From positions 128,706 through 192,705 of the forward strand of contig CAYVNN010000004.1 in the NCBI GenBank assembly GCA_964453185.1: 64,000 nt of DNA, in the 5' to 3' direction. Shown here piece by piece: positions 3,849-43,454 of this stretch (positions are counted from its first letter, which is position 1; each line of letters begins with the position of its first letter). Source of the DNA: an uncultured Methanosarcinales archaeon. GTDB taxonomy: Archaea; Nanobdellota; Nanobdellia; Woesearchaeales; DSVV01. The notes below the pieces were generated by a model. The model was not told the origin of the DNA. It searched no databases and saw nothing but the letters and a program-made list of their open reading frames with translations. Made by a program: the position numbers and the translations under genes.

Positions 3849-4376
3849 ATGAATAAAAAAATACAAATCCCTATCATTGCATTAGTTGTTTTAATTATAA
3901 CTTTCTTTGCTTATTCTGCTTATGCACTTAATTCTGTGCAAGTGCAAGATTTTAATCTCAACAATATTGGAACAAATAAACAGATGGATTTTGTTATTGA
4001 AGGAGATGTTGTTGTTCATAATCCTAGTTTGTTGACTGCAAAGATTACTAGTATTAATTATACTGTTGTTTTAGAAAAAACAGATGAAATAATTTTTCAA
4101 GGAGATATTGATGGAAAAGATATTCCTGCAGGAGAAACAGTTAATTTAGAATTTGAATCTGTTTCAGATTGGGTTCCGAGTGCAACAACTGCTTCAGGTA
4201 TGTTAAAATCAGAAAAGATTTACATTGTAATCATTGCAGATGTCAATGCTAAGTTAATATTCTTTGATGTATCTTCTCAAATGCAAACAAAGATGGACAT
4301 TGCACCAATGGTTAAACCTTTGATACAACAACAAATACAAAATGTTTTGAGTACGCTAGGTGGATTGTTGAAGTAG
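3849..4376 (+). CDS. LEA14-like / WHy (LEA_2) domain membrane-anchored protein
   Basis: N-terminal TM helix, then VVVHNPSLLTAKITSINYTVVL and alternating beta-strand pattern reminiscent of the LEA_2/NDR1-HIN1 domain. Confidence 0.4.
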   Translation: MNKKIQIPIIALVVLIITFFAYSAYALNSVQVQDFNLNNIGTNKQMDFVIEGDVVVHNPSLLTAKITSINYTVVLEKTDEIIFQGDIDGKDIPAGETVNLEFESVSDWVPSATTASGMLKSEKIYIVIIADVNAKLIFFDVSSQMQTKMDIAPMVKPLIQQQIQNVLSTLGGLLK

Positions 4377-4379
4377 TGT

Positions 4380-4530
4380 TTATTGCCTGGCCAGTTCACT
4401 ACACCAAATTCTATTATATTTTATCTATGTAACTTGGTTCCTCTTTGTCTTACGACTGACAAATGAAAAAGGAGCGAGGCTTCACTAAGTTCAGCCAAGT
4501 CACGTTCACAACATGGGGCCTAGGCAATAA
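4380..4530 (+). ncRNA. GC-enriched structured intergenic element (family 2, copy a); candidate small RNA or MITE
   Basis: Ends pair (UUAUUGCCUGGCC ... GGCCUAGGCAAUAA). Internal GUUCACUAC and AGCCAAG motifs. A related copy is at 37653-37776. Confidence 0.3.
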
Positions 4531-4622: not shown

Positions 4623-5459
4623 ATGAAAGAAAGAGTTACTTTAACAATAGAAAATAGTATTCTTAATCAGGTTGATAGAAAAGTTGATGGATATAAAATA
4701 AAAAATAGGAGTCATGCAGTTGAATTATTATTATTAAAATCATTAGGTCAAAACAGGCCTAAGTTTGGTTTTATTCTTGCTGGTGGTCGAGGGACAAGGT
4801 TGAAACCAATCACAGATGAGATTCCAAAACCACTAGTTCCTTTACATGATAAACCAATCTTGGAACATACTTTGGATTTGTTTAAAAAGTTTGGAATAAA
4901 TAAGGTATTGTTATCAATTGGTTACAAAGGAGATAAAATTAAAGAATATTTTGGAAATGGAAAACGGTTTGGATTAAATATTACTTATATTGAGGAGAAA
5001 GAACCAATGGGAACAGGAGGTCCTTTGAATATTGCAAAATCTTTTTTAACAGATACTTTTGTAATGTGTAATGCTGATGAACTTAAAGATATTGATCTTG
5101 ATGAAATGTATTTATTTCATAAAGAAAATAATGCTGTTGCAACAATTGCATTAACAACAGTAGAAGATCCAAGTAAATATGGTGTTGCAAAATTAAGTGG
5201 AAATAAAATATTACAGTTTATTGAAAAACCACCTAAAGAAGAAGCACCATCTAAATTAATTAATGCTGGTTTATATATTTTAGAACCTTCTGTTTTGGAT
5301 TATCTTCCAGAAGGGAAATGTTCAGTTGAAAGAGATGTTTTTCCAAAAATTGCAGCAGATGGTAAAATGTATGGATATCATTTTAGTGGTCAATGGTTTG
5401 ATACAGGTAATCTAGAAAGATATGAGAAAGCAATAAAGGAGTGGAGAGATTTAGATTAA
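4623..5459 (+). CDS. Sugar-1-phosphate nucleotidyltransferase (NDP-sugar pyrophosphorylase) with an N-terminal ~45-aa RHH-like extension
   Basis: GFILAGGRGTRLKPIT...KPLVP signature of G1P thymidylyl/uridylyl/mannose-1-P guanylyl transferases from residue ~50. Preceded by VTLTIENSILNQVDRKV...NRSHAVELLL, a beta-strand/helix/helix pattern. Confidence 0.75.
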   Translation: MKERVTLTIENSILNQVDRKVDGYKIKNRSHAVELLLLKSLGQNRPKFGFILAGGRGTRLKPITDEIPKPLVPLHDKPILEHTLDLFKKFGINKVLLSIGYKGDKIKEYFGNGKRFGLNITYIEEKEPMGTGGPLNIAKSFLTDTFVMCNADELKDIDLDEMYLFHKENNAVATIALTTVEDPSKYGVAKLSGNKILQFIEKPPKEEAPSKLINAGLYILEPSVLDYLPEGKCSVERDVFPKIAADGKMYGYHFSGQWFDTGNLERYEKAIKEWRDLD

Positions 5460-19405: not shown

Positions 19406-20085
19406 TTGATATATTTATGTGGTGTTTTTCTGGTGGTTAATGTAGGTAAAGTAGAGGATATTGAGTTAAATTGTAAGACTGCTTATTTAGCAGGAGTTAT
19501 TATTGGCGATGGTCATATATCTAATTCAACTAAGTCAAAGTTAGATTTATTAAGGATTATAAAATTGTTATTGATATTGCAGATAAAAATTTTCTTTATT
19601 GTCTTTATAATATGATTAAAACTATGATTTTAACTAAAAGTATTCCAAGACCAACAAAAATTAGAGGAAATCGAAAAGAACGGTGGTGTTTTCAGTTTAG
19701 AAACAAATCATTTTACTTTTTCCTTACTGGATACTTAGGGATAATAGCTGGCTCAAAAAGTTCATTTGTTAGAATGCCTTTGAAAATTAAAAATGCAAAT
19801 ATTAGGTTAAAAAAATATTTCTTAGCAGGATTATTTGATACTGATGGTGGTTTTAGAGGTAATTCTCTTGGATTTACAACTGCAAGTAAAGACTTAAATA
19901 AGGATGTTCATGATTTATTGGATGAATTATTAATCAGACATAGTCTTGATAAATGGGAAAATAAAAAATATGGAAAATTTTATTATGGGATTAGAATTGC
20001 TAAGTCTGAAATAGATAATTTTTTAAATAAGGTGCCTATACAAAACAAAGAAAAGTTGAAAAGAATCCGTTCCAGATTCCCTTGA
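19406..20085 (+). pseudogene. LAGLIDADG homing endonuclease (two LAGLIDADG motifs) interrupted by a frameshift
   Basis: Motif 1 YLAGVIIGDGHI is in frame 2 (19406-19615). Motif 2 FLAGLFDTDGGF is in frame 1 (19612-20085). The frame change lies near the A5 run at about 19584. The stop TGA (20083-85) overlaps position 1-2 of the downstream tRNA. Confidence 0.55.
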
Positions 20086-20294
20086 GGGGGTGCCGGAGTG
20101 GTCAAACGGGACAGATATTTTTATTTCAACTTTTTAGAATAAAATTAGTTTAAGCTTAGGCCACTTCACTGGTGTAAAGAGTTTACAGCTGTGATTGGAA
20201 GACACCTGTTGGCTTAGTGCCTACTAGGGTTCAAACATGCTCACTAGCGTTTGGAGCTTCCAACGTTAGGGCGTTGAAAGTCCCTACCCCCTCA
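20084..20294 (+). tRNA. Intron-containing class II tRNA, probably tRNA-Leu (A73), with a T-loop (59/60-60/61) intron and a large anticodon-region intron
   Basis: Acceptor GAGGGGG/CCCCCUC with A73. Class II D-arm UGCCGGAGUGGUCAAACGG. Variable-arm hairpin GGCUUAGUGCC. T-arm UAGGG-UUCAAA[45-nt intron]U-CCCUA. A T-run follows. Anticodon not resolved by eye; CUUAG loops are present. Confidence 0.5.
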
Positions 20295-31386: not shown

Positions 31387-31457
31387 TGCACCGGGCGGGA
31401 ATCGAACCCGCGCCTAAGCGTTGGCAACGCCCAATTGTACCATTCAACCACCGGTGC
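31387..31457 (-). tRNA. tRNA-Gly (GCC), intronless
   Basis: Minus strand GCACCGG-UG-GUUG-AAUGGUA-CAAU-U-GGGCG-UUGCCAA-CGCUU-AGGC-GCGGG-UUCGAUU-CCCGC-CCGGUGC-A. All stems pair; 71 nt. Confidence 0.85.
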
Positions 31458-31493
31458 TTAGAACGTGTTTATTATTATTTAATACAAAAATAA

Positions 31494-31653
31494 TGGTGGG
31501 CCCACCCGGAATTACGAAACAGGAGATAACTCCTTATTTTCTCGAACCGGGGATCAATGCCTTTCTTTGTGAAATAAATCACTTGTAAGGGCACTGTCAT
31601 AGCTTCTAGCTGCGAGCAAAGTTTCACTTCGCAAGTCACTAGACCATGAGCCC
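31494..31653 (-). tRNA. tRNA-Val (UAC) with three introns (D-loop ~33 nt, anticodon 37/38 ~21 nt, T-loop ~29 nt) and genomically encoded CCA
   Basis: Acceptor GGGCUCA/UGGGCCC with A73 then CCA. Anticodon arm GUGCC-CUUACAA[intron]-GGCAU. T-arm CCCGG-UUCGA[intron containing GGAGUUAUCUCC]AU-CCGGG. The D-loop is interrupted. Confidence 0.6.
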
Positions 31654-31713
31654 ATTATCTAAATCTTTGAATTAAATGCTGTTTTAAATAGTTTTCTGTT
31701 TAAAAAGTAAGAA

Positions 31714-32322
31714 TTATCGACAACCCCACATTTCTGTATATTCAAATTCACCCCCTCTCATTGTTGTATAGCAGTCAGGTGGAGGACTAAATACAGCAGT
31801 GTCTATTCCTTCTCTACATGCTCTTTCATATTGTTCTCGTGTAATGCTTTTATCATCATAATGATGTCTTAGTGCAATTGCACTTAGAGCTATTGTATCA
31901 GTAGGTATTGTTGGATCTCTTCTTTTTGTAGCATTATAATATGAATCAAAACACTGTCTTGTTTCACTATCAAGAGCATTAACCATTTCTCTGTCTTTTT
32001 CTGGAACTTCACATACCTTCCCTTCTTTTGCATCTTGCATACAAACTAGTGTTTCTAATCTTGGAGTTAGTACTCTTGTTCCTTCTGGAATATTTTTACA
32101 GTCAGTTAAAGCACTATTTTGCATATTAAATTCACATAATTCATCATCATGTAGACTACCCATAATAGTGCCGTATGCAAAATGAGCATAATATAATATG
32201 CTTTTCTTGTATCTTTTTAGTATCTCTTGTACTTGTGGACTTGGTTGTTCTTGTGCATATGTTGGATTAACAGTTAATGGAATGACTAGTGCTGCAATAC
32301 TTAGAATTCTTGAAAATCTCAT
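31714..32322 (-). CDS. Secreted hypothetical protein with signal peptide
   Basis: MRFSRILSIAALVIPLTVNPTYAQEQ signal, then a Cys-containing domain. The track ORF extends to 32385 from an earlier Met. Confidence 0.45.
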   Translation of the reverse strand: MRFSRILSIAALVIPLTVNPTYAQEQPSPQVQEILKRYKKSILYYAHFAYGTIMGSLHDDELCEFNMQNSALTDCKNIPEGTRVLTPRLETLVCMQDAKEGKVCEVPEKDREMVNALDSETRQCFDSYYNATKRRDPTIPTDTIALSAIALRHHYDDKSITREQYERACREGIDTAVFSPPPDCYTTMRGGEFEYTEMWGCR

Positions 32323-32447
32323 ATTATTATATAGTAAGATGTTAGGATATATTAATCTTATGTTTAAATATGGTTTTGTCATCAAAATCTTTATAAATCA
32401 TATATAAACTTCTTTATGTTTAGGACTAAGTGACTTTATTTAATGTT

Positions 32448-32526
32448 TATATAAATAATGCCGACTCACAAGTTCATCGACATTATTAGACATTAAAAAA
32501 CAAATTTAATCGACTAAAGTCGATGA
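32448..32526 (+). promoter_or_regulatory. Promoter-proximal dual-hairpin module, copy M2 (upstream of tRNA-Ile)
   Basis: tatataaataatgccgactcacaagttcatcgacattattagac … aatcgactaaagtcgatg. Both hairpins are present. Confidence 0.45.
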
Positions 32527-32542
32527 AATTGCTTTATTTAAT

Positions 32543-32678
32543 GGGCCTGTAGCTTAGTCTGGTTGGAGCGCTGGTCTTATATGGCTTCGTTTCATACAAG
32601 AAATTGGCTCTGAGTGAGCCAGTGGTCGTGAGAGGTCATCTTTTAGATGATTCACGAATTCAAATCTCATCAGGCCCA
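32543..32678 (+). tRNA. tRNA-Ile (UAU) with two introns (37/38, 35 nt; 53/54, 26 nt)
   Basis: GGGCCUG-UA-GCUU-AGUCUGGUUG-GAGC-G-CUGGU-CUUAUA[35 nt]A-GCCAG-UGGUC-GUGAG[26 nt]UUCAAAU-CUCAU-CAGGCCC-A. All helices pair. An oligo-T follows. Confidence 0.65.
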
Positions 32679-32740
32679 TTATTTTTTTATATTTAGAGAA
32701 AGATTTAAAAAGGACTACAGAAAACAAGATTATACTTAAA

Positions 32741-32897
32741 GCTCCGTTGGTGTAGTCCGGCCAATCATCCAGGATTTTCGTGGCGATGAATCAAAGATTC
32801 ATGAAGTTTTCGCTTTTCGCCGAAAACATCCTGGGACTCGGGTTCGAATATCAAAAAAGGGTTAAAACCTATTGATTTGAAAGTCCCGGACGGAGCA
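32741..32897 (+). tRNA. tRNA-Glu (UUC) with two introns (37/38, ~47 nt; 60/61, 35 nt)
   Basis: GCUCCGU-UG-GUGUAGUCCGGCCAAUCAUC-CAGGA-UUUUCG[intron with CGAAAAC complement]A-UCCUG-GGAC-UCGGG-UUCGAAU[AUCAAAAAAGGGUUAAAACCUAUUGAUUUGAAAGU]CCCGG-ACGGAGC-A. Confidence 0.65.
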
Positions 32898-32922
32898 TTT
32901 ATTATAATATGGTGAAATCATA

Positions 32923-33024
32923 ATGAAAAGAAGTTCAAGACGATGGAAAAAGAAAGGCCAAATGAGATGGAAATGGCAGCGAAAGAGAATGAAGAAGGAA
33001 AAGCGAAGAAGAGCTAAGAAATAA
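32923..33024 (+). CDS. Small basic peptide, ribosomal protein L41e-like (33 aa)
   Basis: MKRSSRRWKKKGQMRWKWQRKRMKKEKRRRAKK. SD ggtga lies 8 nt upstream. Embedded in the tRNA cluster and not listed in the ORF track. Confidence 0.4.
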   Translation: MKRSSRRWKKKGQMRWKWQRKRMKKEKRRRAKK

Positions 33025-33164
33025 ATAGATTAATCTCTCTTTCTATTCTTATTATATTCAGTTAAATTTATATAACAGATGAAATTCTAATTACTTTTAT
33101 GCCAACGTGGCATACTCAAAAAAAGCAATTTTTTTGGTCGCCAAGTTGTCATTCATACATTCAT

Positions 33165-33329
33165 GCCAACGTGGCACAATCTGGTACTGCGCGGATTCTG
33201 TGATGAGCAGAAGCGTAAGCCTTGAGTGTCTAATCACTTAGGATCAGGTTAGCCCGTTTCCTCACGGATATCCCGGTTCAAATAACAAAAAGGTTCAAAC
33301 CTATTGTTTTGAAAGTCCGGGCGTTGGCG
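33165..33329 (+). tRNA. Intron-containing tRNA (isotype unresolved) with a 60/61 intron homologous to that of tRNA-Glu, plus an anticodon-region intron
   Basis: Acceptor GCCAACG/CGUUGGC with G73. D-arm UGGCACAAUCUGGUACUGC. T-arm CCCGG-UUCAAAU[AACAAAAAGGUUCAAACCUAUUGUUUUGAAAGU]CCGGG. An oligo-T follows. Confidence 0.5.
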
Positions 33330-40292: not shown

Positions 40293-42209
40293 ATGGATAT
40301 TGATAAATTATTGAATAGAATAAGAGAATATAATCCTAATGCAGACATTAAGTTAATTAAGAAATCATATGATGTTGCTTTGAAAGCGCATAAAGGACAG
40401 AAGAGGGAGTCAGGAGAGCCTTATATTTCTCATCCATTGAATGTTGCTAAGATTTTAACAGAACTTAAAGCAGATTCTGCTACAATCAGTGCAGCTTTAT
40501 TACATGATGTTGTTGAAGATACTAATGTGTCTATGGATAAAATAAAAAAAGATTTTGGTGAAGAGGTTGCAACTATTGTAGAAGGGCTAACTAAGATTGA
40601 TAAGATTCATTTTGAAACAAAAGAAGATTATAGTGCTGAAAATTTAAGAAAGGTTCTTTTGGCAACTACTAAAGATATTAGAGTTATGTTAGTTAAGTTA
40701 GCAGATAGATTACATAATATGTCTACATTAAAAAATTTTAGAACAGATAAACAAAAAAGAATTGCAACTGAAACTTTAGAGATTTATGCTCCTATTGCAC
40801 ATAAACTTGGAATGTGGAATATGAAAGGAGAATTAGAAGATTTATCTTTAAGATATCTTAAACCAGACGTATATAGATTTCTTGCAGATAACATTAGTGG
40901 GAAAAGGCAAGAAAGAGAAAAAACAACAAAAGAAATTATTAAATTAATTAACAAAAAATTAAAAGAAAAAAATATTACTGCAGAAATTTATGGAAGAGCA
41001 AAATATTTCTTAAGTATATATAAAAAAATGCAGAAAAAGAATCTTGATATTGATGAGATTTATGATTTAATTGCAGTAAGGATAATTACTCAAACAATTC
41101 CTGAATGTTATGGTGCACTAGGTGTTGTTCATGATTTATGGAGACCTTTACCACATAGGTTTAAAGATTATATCTCTGTTCCAAAAGCTAATGGTTACCA
41201 GAGTTTACATACTACTGTTATCACAAAAGATGGGAGAAAATTAGAAGTACAAATTAGGACAGAAGATATGCATCAGATGGCTGAAGTTGGTGTTGCAGCT
41301 CATTGGAAATATCAAGGTACTGAGAGAGATAAACAGTTTGATAAAAGAATTTCTTGGTTAAAGCAAGTTTTAGATTGGAAAAGAGGATCAGATGATGCAA
41401 AAGACTTTATTGAATCGTTTAAAATAGATTTATTCCACGACGAGATTGTTGTCTTTACACCAAAAGGAGATCCAATTTCATTACCTGTAGGATCATCACC
41501 TATTGATTTTGCTTATGCTGTTCATAGTAATGTAGGTAAACAATGTTCATCAACAAAGATTAATAATAAAATGGTTCCTTTGGATACTGAATTAAAGTCA
41601 GGGGATATTATTGAGATAATCACACAGAAAAATGCTAAACCTTCAAGACAATGGTTGAAATTTGTTAAGACAGGGAAAGCAAGAAATAAGATAAGAGCAG
41701 CATTAAATATAAAATCGGAATTAGATCCTAAAAAGGGAAGATTAAGAAAAGAAATGATACAGGCATCTGAAGAAAAGGTTGTTGATCAAATTATAATTGA
41801 AGGAAAGAAAAAAGGTCAGGTTAAATTTTCAAAATGTTGTAATCCAAGGTATGGGGAAGAAATTGTAGCATTTTTTACAAAAGATAAGAAAATTACTGTT
41901 CATAAAAAGACCTGTCCTAATATTTATACTTTAGATAAGAATAAAGAAATTAAAATTAAATGGAAAGTAAGAAGAACAAAGGAACAATATTTAATTGTTA
42001 TTTCTATAGGAGATAGGTTAGGGTTAATGTCTGAGATATTGAATGTTTTTGTTAAGCATAGAATTAATTTAACTGCGATAAACACAAAGGCAAAGAAAGA
42101 CCATGTTGTTATTAAGATTAATATTGATAAGATTGCTAGGAATGTGGTTGATGATTTAATTATTGATATTAAGAAGCTAAGTGATGTTATGGATGTTGCA
42201 TTGAGCTAG
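40293..42209 (+). CDS. rel: Bifunctional (p)ppGpp synthetase/hydrolase, long RelA/SpoT homolog (HD-SYNTH-TGS-ACT)
   Basis: HD domain HKGQKRESGEPYISHPLNVAKIL…AALLHDVVEDT. Synthetase YGRAKYFLSIYKKM…DLIAVRIITQ…KANGYQSLHTTV. TGS EIVVFTPKGDPISLP…GDIIEIIT. C-terminal ACT-like domain. Confidence 0.85.
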   Translation: MDIDKLLNRIREYNPNADIKLIKKSYDVALKAHKGQKRESGEPYISHPLNVAKILTELKADSATISAALLHDVVEDTNVSMDKIKKDFGEEVATIVEGLTKIDKIHFETKEDYSAENLRKVLLATTKDIRVMLVKLADRLHNMSTLKNFRTDKQKRIATETLEIYAPIAHKLGMWNMKGELEDLSLRYLKPDVYRFLADNISGKRQEREKTTKEIIKLINKKLKEKNITAEIYGRAKYFLSIYKKMQKKNLDIDEIYDLIAVRIITQTIPECYGALGVVHDLWRPLPHRFKDYISVPKANGYQSLHTTVITKDGRKLEVQIRTEDMHQMAEVGVAAHWKYQGTERDKQFDKRISWLKQVLDWKRGSDDAKDFIESFKIDLFHDEIVVFTPKGDPISLPVGSSPIDFAYAVHSNVGKQCSSTKINNKMVPLDTELKSGDIIEIITQKNAKPSRQWLKFVKTGKARNKIRAALNIKSELDPKKGRLRKEMIQASEEKVVDQIIIEGKKKGQVKFSKCCNPRYGEEIVAFFTKDKKITVHKKTCPNIYTLDKNKEIKIKWKVRRTKEQYLIVISIGDRLGLMSEILNVFVKHRINLTAINTKAKKDHVVIKINIDKIARNVVDDLIIDIKKLSDVMDVALS

Positions 42210-43192: not shown

Positions 43193-43299
43193 GCCCTGGT
43201 AGTGTAGCTCGGCCTATCATGAAGCCCTGTCGAGGCTTCGACTCGGGTTCGAATAAGGATTTCCTGTGTGGATATCCTCTGAAAGTCCCGGCCAGGGCG
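43193..43299 (+). tRNA. tRNA-Asp (GUC) with a single 32-nt intron at 60/61 (T-loop)
   Basis: GCCCUGG-UA-GUGUAGCUCGGCCUAUCAUG-AAGCC-CUGUCGA-GGCUU-CGAC-UCGGG-UUCGAAU[AAGGAUUUCCUGUGUGGAUAUCCUCUGAAAGU]CCCGG-CCAGGGC-G. Confidence 0.7.
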
Positions 43300-43313: not shown

Positions 43314-43454
43314 GGGCCGTTAGCTCAGCCTGGTACTTTGTAAGTATTCAAAGCTTTATCGGCAGGAAAGAGCACTGCACTTTTAACAAAGACTGGAACT
43401 TTCAACCAGTTGAAAGTGATGCAGGTGTCGCGAGTTCGAATCTCGTACGGCCCA
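43314..43454 (+). tRNA. tRNA-Lys (UUU) with two introns (D-loop ~34 nt; anticodon 37/38 33 nt)
   Basis: GGGCCGU-UA-GCUC-AGCCUGGUA[intron]-GAGC-A-CUGCA-CUUUUA[ACAAAGACUGGAACUUUCAACCAGUUGAAAGUG]A-UGCAG-GUGUC-GCGAG-UUCGAAU-CUCGU-ACGGCCC-A. Confidence 0.65.

Follow-up and report, generated by a model that had tools for sequence, protein, structure and literature searches.

The 64-kb window analysed here (64,000 nucleotides of contig CAYVNN010000004.1; positions are counted from its first base) raises the question of whether a group of transfer RNA (tRNA) genes, some of them interrupted at three places, are working genes whose transcripts are restored by splicing, and which splicing system their introns point to. 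The initial annotation had described them as multi-intron tRNA genes of archaeal type, interrupted at non-canonical sites, and such genes are indeed present, beyond chance, where they had been placed. They are very probably functional genes, the transcripts of which carry one to three introns of the bulge-helix-bulge (BHB) type spliced by archaeal proteins. The host is a Woesearchaeota-like DPANN archaeon, the closest named relatives of its Kae1 belonging to Candidatus Woesearchaeota and Nanoarchaeota, and the gene content of the window is archaeal (rpoH, eIF6, L44e, exosome, proteasome). The host is AT-rich (G+C about 30%), and its population is represented in six independent metagenome assemblies, across which the tRNA genes are 100% identical.

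Standard tRNA finders recover little of this set. ARAGORN reports one tRNA in the window, the minus-strand Gly(GCC) at 31387-31457, and two further tRNA matches, of low score and with large insertions, come from Rfam at the gathering threshold (32543-32678 and 43314-43454); with one gene found by ARAGORN and three by Rfam, the two together miss five of the eight genes described below. The permissive E-value mode of Rfam, applied to the whole window, gave no additional tRNA. When introns were allowed, ARAGORN returned Gly only and mis-called the Ile gene as Trp(cca), and a lowered threshold produced 114 mostly spurious calls. As standard calls find only one to three genes, the claimed introns could not be checked with off-the-shelf tools.

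A search guided by BHB geometry was carried out. In the rule applied, the 5′ bulge comprises the last two exon bases and the first intron base, the central helix (H) pairs the four exon bases before this bulge with intron bases n-5 to n-2, and the 3′ bulge comprises the last two intron bases and the first base of the 3′ exon; the outer helix (h) is exon-exon and the inner helix (h′) intron-intron. BHB-compatible deletions were enumerated and spliced out, and the products were scored against an explicit cloverleaf (stems of 7, 4, 5 and 5 bp; U8, A14, GG, U33, R37, T-loop and G53-C61). This explicit score was used because acceptance by ARAGORN, tried as a splice filter, was too permissive and yielded dozens of alternative "tRNAs" per gene. 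The central-helix criterion was relaxed from four pairs out of four to three, as the strict form missed tRNA-Val entirely.

The search recovers eight canonical cloverleaves. Two independent structural scans of both strands likewise give eight tRNA genes in the window, the rest being obvious noise, of which seven are interrupted; the initial annotation had counted nine and eight, respectively, although its own list holds eight. There are 16 introns in total, each 21-47 nt long: three each in Leu(UAG), Val(UAC) and Ser(UGA), two each in Ile(UAU), Glu(UUC) and Lys(UUU), one in Asp(GUC) and none in Gly(GCC), which had rightly been singled out as the only intronless gene. Thus, six of the eight genes are multiply interrupted, and three are at the three-intron maximum. 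The introns occupy positions 18/19, 20/21, 29/30, 30/31, 37/38, 53/54 and 59/60.

The geometry of the junctions carries the argument. The initial annotation had named exon-exon junctions without BHB motifs as evidence that would speak against it, and all 16 introns were found to sit in BHB-type motifs. The central helix is paired 4/4 in 13 of them and 3/4 in three. Eleven introns form complete hBHBh′ motifs, two of them only once the neighbouring intron is removed, and five (Val 18/19, Lys 20/21, Ser 29/30, Leu 30/31 and Ile 53/54) show the relaxed HBh′ form without an outer helix. When intron sequences were shuffled, H plus h′ was reproduced at p = 0.0004-0.03 per intron (Fisher combined 8e-24), and when the anticodon arms were shuffled and the solver re-run, an equal cloverleaf with the cognate anticodon appeared in 0/600 (Ser) and 1/600 (Leu) trials. 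The partition function places H at P ≥ 0.4 for nine of the 16 introns, including four of the five HBh′ introns.

Removal of the inserts restores perfect stems, in agreement with the earlier statement that the exon helices pair perfectly, and ARAGORN calls all eight spliced products as tRNAs with the expected anticodons. The restored T-loops are UUCAAAU or UUCGAAU as previously described, except in Val, where the loop is UUCGAGU. The T-loop introns had been placed at 60/61; the BHB geometry puts them at 59/60, and both placements yield an identical mature sequence in Glu, Ser and Asp.

Comparison with related genomes provides evidence of a different kind. At least eight window introns are lacking in relatives, six of which appear as alignment gaps of exactly the predicted lengths (Val 18/19, Val 37/38, Ile 53/54, Glu 37/38 and Glu 59/60 against L084; Lys 20/21 against L007), and four other introns persist in relatives, where their sequences have diverged or become shorter next to conserved exons. 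On an evolutionary scale the introns are fluid, relatives differing by the clean presence or absence of single introns. L084 is Candidatus Woesearchaeota Meg22_1012_Bin_87, which has a syntenic Val-Gly-Ile-Glu-L41e block followed by 16S ribosomal RNA (rRNA); in L007 the Kae1 identity is 84% and the Asp-Lys pair adjoins rpoH.

The tRNA-Val(UAC) gene (31497-31653, minus strand), found by the BHB-guided search and supported by the L084 alignment, has introns at 31604-31636 (18/19, 33 nt), 31563-31583 (37/38, 21 nt) and 31511-31540 (59/60, 30 nt), which bears out the three introns claimed earlier for its D-loop, position 37/38 and T-loop and fixes the D-loop site at 18/19. Its L084 orthologue, in which the alignment gaps measure precisely 33 and 21 nt, keeps a diverged 59/60 intron as well as the encoded CCA, which was correctly noticed in the window gene (31494-31496, minus strand). 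An encoded CCA on one gene, the other seven tRNA genes of the window being without it, is a minor feature; archaeal genomes encode CCA on a variable share of their tRNA genes. The uninterrupted tRNA-Gly(GCC) at 31387-31457 on the minus strand (ARAGORN; Rfam tRNA, 64.2 bits) corresponds to a gene with a 59/60 intron in L084.

The two introns each that had been claimed for Ile, Glu and Lys were likewise recovered. On the plus strand, tRNA-Ile(UAU) (32543-32678; Rfam tRNA, 35.3 bits with two large insertions, and BHB-guided search) is interrupted at 32582-32616 (37/38, 35 nt) and 32633-32658 (53/54, 26 nt, HBh′). In L084, a 37/38 intron is present that is also 35 nt long but differs in sequence, and precisely the 26 nt of the 53/54 intron are missing. 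tRNA-Glu(UUC) (32741-32897, plus strand; BHB-guided search and L084 alignment), with introns at 32781-32827 (37/38, 47 nt) and 32849-32883 (59/60, 35 nt), is intronless in L084, the alignment gaps being 47 and 35 nt. The UAU anticodon of tRNA-Ile is also present in L084 (3894-4003). In most archaea, AUA is decoded by a CAU tRNA that bears agmatidine; the other known occurrences of UAU tRNA-Ile are in Nanoarchaeum and Korarchaeum.

The single intron of tRNA-Asp(GUC) (43193-43299, plus strand; BHB-guided search and L007 orthologue) lies at 43254-43285 (59/60, 32 nt). In L007, the Asp exons are identical except for R57 (G/A), and a 59/60 intron is present with mostly different sequence. The tRNA-Lys(UUU) gene (43314-43454, plus strand; Rfam tRNA, 44.6 bits, and BHB-guided search) lies 14 nt downstream of Asp and immediately upstream of rpoH, and carries introns at 43335-43368 (20/21, in the D-loop, 34 nt) and 43386-43418 (37/38, 33 nt). 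Its L007 counterpart is without the D-loop intron, and its 37/38 intron is only 15 nt long because the inner hairpin is deleted.

Several observations weigh against the reading of these genes as functional and spliced. The central helices of Leu 37/38 and of two Val introns (37/38 and 59/60) each contain one mismatch. In five 37/38 introns the central helix is A/U-rich, and thermodynamic folding puts it at P of about 0, so that the thermodynamic support is only partial. A control with shifted junctions did not discriminate, as 138 of 280 shifted products were still called tRNA by ARAGORN. The solutions were picked by a home-made cloverleaf score, with runner-ups 0.4-1 point away, and the three-intron solution for Ser stands on cloverleaf fit, BHB quality and the shuffle null. 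No gene for EndA, the archaeal splicing endonuclease, was detected in the window by Pfam on 30 open reading frames (ORFs), by the precomputed Pfam list or by tblastn with M. jannaschii EndA, a query checked against PDB 1a79. Splicing itself is deduced from sequence.

Leu and Ser were both solved by search with runner-ups close to the best, and the alternative that survives best leaves the rest of the reading intact but holds one or both of these solutions to be wrong, with other junctions or another number of introns in the anticodon arm; it is unlikely. The best cloverleaf solution for tRNA-Leu(UAG) (20084-20294, plus strand), a class II tRNA of 84 nt after splicing that ARAGORN calls Leu(tag), has introns at 20115-20153 (30/31, 39 nt), 20161-20203 (37/38, 43 nt) and 20236-20280 (59/60, 45 nt), with a 7-nt micro-exon, GCTTAGG, at 20154-20160. 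The gene had been recognised as interrupted, and it is the number of introns that needed correction, to three. An error here is favoured by two G-U pairs in the 30/31 central helix, the 3/4 pairing of the 37/38 helix and the 22 of 600 shuffles that reach the Leu score when the anticodon is ignored. However, intronless Leu(UAG) homologues carry the anticodon arm ACAGGCTTAGGACCTGT, identical to the predicted spliced arm of the window gene; the 3′ end of its 37/38 intron, TGGAAGAC, recurs in the 37/38 intron of L158; and the layout of 30/31 and 37/38 introns is common to L185 and L134. A metagenome scan with the Leu D-arm gave 102 distinct related genes, 86 of them intronless, 12 with one 37/38 intron and four with two introns; none of the 102 has a T-loop intron, and all three window introns are missing from most homologues.

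The gene at 33165-33329 (plus strand), listed earlier as a tRNA of unknown identity with two introns, is in its top solution a class II tRNA-Ser(UGA) with discriminator G73 and three introns, at 33195-33218 (29/30, 24 nt), 33227-33250 (37/38, 24 nt) and 33283-33315 (59/60, 33 nt), with an 8-nt micro-exon, GCCTTGAG, at 33219-33226. No orthologue was found for comparison. Against a wrong solution stand the perfect, G/C-rich anticodon stem CGGGC/GCCCG, the strong BHB motifs (scores (4,0,6), (4,2->6,4) and (4,5,2) for the three introns), the shuffle null given above and the class II variable arm, which together with G73 fits the UGA anticodon; the spliced form is identified by ARAGORN as Ser(tga). 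A direct repeat of 14 nt, ATGCCAACGTGGCA, at 33099-33112 and 33163-33176 (plus strand) places a copy of the 5′ end of tRNA-Ser 64 nt upstream, and a TATA-like box, AAATTTATATAA (about 33065-33076), lies about 25 nt upstream of the first copy. The repeat may mark a transcription start or leader, or may be a relic of duplication. A fourth Ser intron making use of this repeat was rejected, as the only 4/4 helices came from repeat-internal palindromes without flanking helices.

Decay is a far less probable explanation, by which the interrupted genes would be pseudogenes hit by random insertions, with functional intact copies elsewhere in the genome. It draws on the failure of ARAGORN and Rfam on five of the eight genes, and on the extent of genome seen, namely the 64 kb plus about 8 kb to its left, which makes other copies possible; no further tRNA gene lies in those 8 kb, and extension to the right gave nothing. 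Random insertion is nevertheless difficult to reconcile with a BHB-type motif around every insert at the combined significance given above, with the perfect stems that come back on insert removal, with the interspecies conservation of exons next to diverging introns (Asp, Val and Ile), and with sequences identical across six assemblies. Moreover, tRNA genes in small DPANN genomes are normally single-copy.

Least probable of all is removal independent of EndA and of BHB recognition (by self-splicing or another nuclease), or an origin as miniature mobile elements merely resembling BHB introns, for although an apparently frameshifted LAGLIDADG homing-endonuclease gene abuts tRNA-Leu and rRNA genes of DPANN archaea are known to contain group I introns (PMC6125680), inserts of 21-47 nt are far below the size of group I or II ribozymes, none of the 16 contains an ORF, and the geometry of a 4-bp helix with 3-nt bulges is kept at seven tRNA positions. 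The group I and II self-splicing introns were ruled out by this length together with the lack of any Rfam intron or ribozyme match in the window, at either the gathering threshold or a permissive E-value. Split or permuted tRNA genes were also rejected, since in all eight genes both acceptor strands lie in cis, with the 5′ strand preceding the 3′ strand as usual.

If these are functional tRNA genes with BHB introns, each intron and its adjoining exon bases would fold into a BHB or relaxed HBh′ motif, in which a 4-bp central helix would pair four 5′-exon bases with four bases near the 3′ end of the intron, and two 3-nt bulges on opposite strands, flanking that helix, would contain the splice sites. 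EndA would cut in both bulges and an RtcB-type ligase would join the exons; RNase P and RNase Z would trim the ends, and CCA would be added to all tRNAs but Val, which encodes its own. The 37/38 motifs of Leu and Ser have the anticodon stem as their outer helix, which is complete only after the 30/31 or 29/30 intron has been removed; ordered splicing is therefore probable, and it would probably pass through the 7-8-nt micro-exon. Such dependence on intron order is explicitly modelled for Crenarchaeota by tRNAscan-SE 2.0 (PMC8450103).

Relaxed motifs (hBH and HBh′) lack one flanking helix and, according to Kaneta et al. 2018 (PMC5829648), need an EndA of broad specificity. The five relaxed HBh′ introns and the two micro-exon arrangements lead to the prediction of such a broad-specificity endonuclease in the host. 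The only EndA recovered, a protein of 172 aa that consists of a single unit, is encoded on L226, a Pacearchaeota-like contig; the best 120 homologues have 164-179 aa, nearly all of them 172, and the architecture is of the alpha4 type. This agrees with the DPANN pattern described in the same survey, an alpha4 EndA with an extra L3 loop, tied to marked tRNA disruption (PMC5829648). By analogy, the heterotetrameric or epsilon-type EndA that the initial annotation had proposed to look for would not be the most likely outcome for the organism of the window.

The introns also bear signs of movement. The 59/60 introns of Ser and Glu share 30 of 35 bases (86%), the next best intron pair reaching 70%, and are by this measure clearly paralogues, which suggests a spread of introns between tRNA genes like that described in Thermoproteales. 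Near-identical introns in different tRNAs ("intron transposition") are attributed to Fujishima 2010 in the summaries of PMC4033280 and PMC4090602. In L084 (3620-3831), the adjacent Val and Gly genes carry 59/60 introns, ACAATCGCGAAATCGGTTATGAAAG and ATCAACCGCGAAATCGGTTATGAAAG, that are near-identical by eye, a second instance of paralogous T-loop introns; both pairs are compatible with a spread of introns from one tRNA gene to another. The ...TGAAAG|T end shared by 59/60 introns was rejected as evidence of shared ancestry, because the need to pair with T54-R57 dictates it; it is also seen in unrelated archaeal 59/60 introns.

This is a case of a published phenomenon, as multi-intron tRNAs, the main intron positions, transposed introns and tRNA disruption in DPANN are all known. 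Positions 20/21, 29/30, 30/31, 53/54 and 59/60 were already listed by Yoshihisa 2014 (PMC4090602), and three introns per gene is the known maximum (PMC4090602, PMC4033280, PMC8450103). The feature that stands out is density, 2.0 introns per gene over only eight genes in a window chosen for looking dense, as compared to a published genome record of about 1.5 per gene (P. calidifontis, 71 introns in 46 genes) and means of 0.84 in Thermoproteales and 0.21 in archaea overall (PMC8450103).

The closest parallel is offered by the Thermoproteales (Pyrobaculum, Thermofilum, Caldivirga; Sugahara 2008 and Fujishima 2010, as summarised in PMC4033280, PMC4090602 and PMC8450103). In these summaries, their genes likewise have up to three introns, over half of the genes are multi-intron at the extremes, near-identical introns occur in different tRNAs as here, and some closely spaced introns, like those of Leu and Ser in the window, need one removed before the next BHB forms. 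The Thermoproteales are, however, crenarchaea with an (alpha-beta)2 EndA bearing a crenarchaeal loop, whereas the window host is an AT-rich DPANN archaeon. Split and tri-split tRNAs (Nanoarchaeum equitans, Caldivirga) and permuted tRNAs follow the same BHB-based processing logic, and the split positions 29/30, 30/31 and 37/38 coincide with intron positions of the window (PMC4090602); in contrast, the window exons are contiguous and colinear in one gene, with neither trans-splicing nor permutation.

Within DPANN, ARMAN-1/2 have disrupted tRNA genes and an epsilon2 EndA (PMC3239211). Kaneta et al. 2018 describe a set that included one Woesearchaeota and one Pacearchaeota genome, report a marked rise in tRNA disruption, and attribute incomplete DPANN tRNA sets to undetected disrupted genes (PMC5829648). 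Those lineages belong to the same superphylum as the window host, and the undetected genes match the five of eight missed here; that survey is built on tRNAscan-SE counts per genome, unlike the gene-by-gene anatomy, the cross-species presence and absence and the three triple-intron genes given here.

To follow the spread of T-loop introns, their DNA pattern was scanned over one genome per species, which gave at least 120 matches, most of them chance matches in bacteria. Among the matches listed, 14 have a genuine tRNA context, and all 14 are archaeal: Micrarchaeota, Aenigmatarchaeota, three further Woesearchaeota genes, Thermoplasmata, Conexivisphaerales, "Methanosarcinales" metagenome-assembled genomes (MAGs) and unclassified archaea. 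Several 59/60-intron tRNA genes among these listed matches carry two or three introns. The earlier view that multi-intron tRNAs with non-canonical positions are known from a few archaeal lineages is thus too narrow, both from this range of taxa and from the DPANN link in Kaneta et al. 2018. Two of the "Methanosarcinales" MAGs have three-intron genes with 59/60 introns, for Gly(UCC) (L065, 5304-5449) and Ile(UAU) (L109, 7220-7396). Three-intron tRNAs are unexpected in Methanosarcinales, which suggests mis-binned or mislabelled contigs.

Some neighbours of the tRNA genes deserve mention. The LAGLIDADG homing-endonuclease gene (19420-20085, plus strand) ends exactly at the first base of tRNA-Leu. 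A Pfam LAGLIDADG_3 match falls on a 157-aa ORF at 19612-20085, and the first LAGLIDADG motif, YLAGVIIGDGHI, lies upstream in another frame; the gene looks, from this arrangement, frameshifted and degenerate, and it is free-standing, outside any detected intron or rRNA. Between tRNA-Glu and tRNA-Ser, a tiny, highly basic ORF beginning MKRSSRRWKKKGQMRWKWQRKR... (about 32923-33024, plus strand) looks, by its sequence, like ribosomal protein L41e; the Ile-Glu-L41e order is kept in L084 (ORF at about 4111-4215), with 16S rRNA next.

An orphan gene of about 222 aa (31714-32385, minus strand) lies between tRNA-Val and tRNA-Ile, interrupting a tRNA block that is contiguous in L084, and its product contains many cysteines and, at the N-terminus, a signal-like segment. 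Among 5.8 billion proteins, a search for homologues of this protein returned only the copy of this population, and exact-protein look-ups with the TTG- and ATG-start versions of the ORF gave no match. Further along, a full-length RelA/SpoT-type protein (40293-42209, plus strand; HD_4, RelA_SpoT, TGS and ACT) adjoins Kae1, as it also does in L007 and L009. Enzymes of (p)ppGpp metabolism with the HD/RelA_SpoT/TGS/ACT architecture are typically bacterial. The intergenic gap that separates the ORFs at 3849-4376 and 4623-5459 contains a G+C-rich island at 4470-4525 (55% against a background of about 30%); it matches neither Rfam nor any tRNA and could represent a small RNA missed by annotation.

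For the DPANN archaea, claims of "missing" tRNAs, and quality scores of MAGs that are based on tRNA counts, can be artefacts of undetected multi-intron genes, and the window supplies fully worked examples of what Kaneta et al. 2018 suspected. The presence or absence of single introns between populations (Val, Ile, Glu, Lys, Gly and Leu) offers a mesophile-type, AT-rich system for the study of BHB intron spread, alongside that of the Thermoproteales, and knowledge of the EndA architecture of this clade would show how closely a broad substrate range is bound to subunit type. It is a tentative and somewhat doubtful proposition that the host combines the highest tRNA-intron load of any genome (about two per gene, with most genes multiply interrupted) and ongoing gain and loss of introns among close relatives of its population with a single-subunit EndA of the alpha4 type. 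If this were true, relaxed HBh′ introns and micro-exons of 7-8 nt would not require heteromeric or three-unit enzymes.

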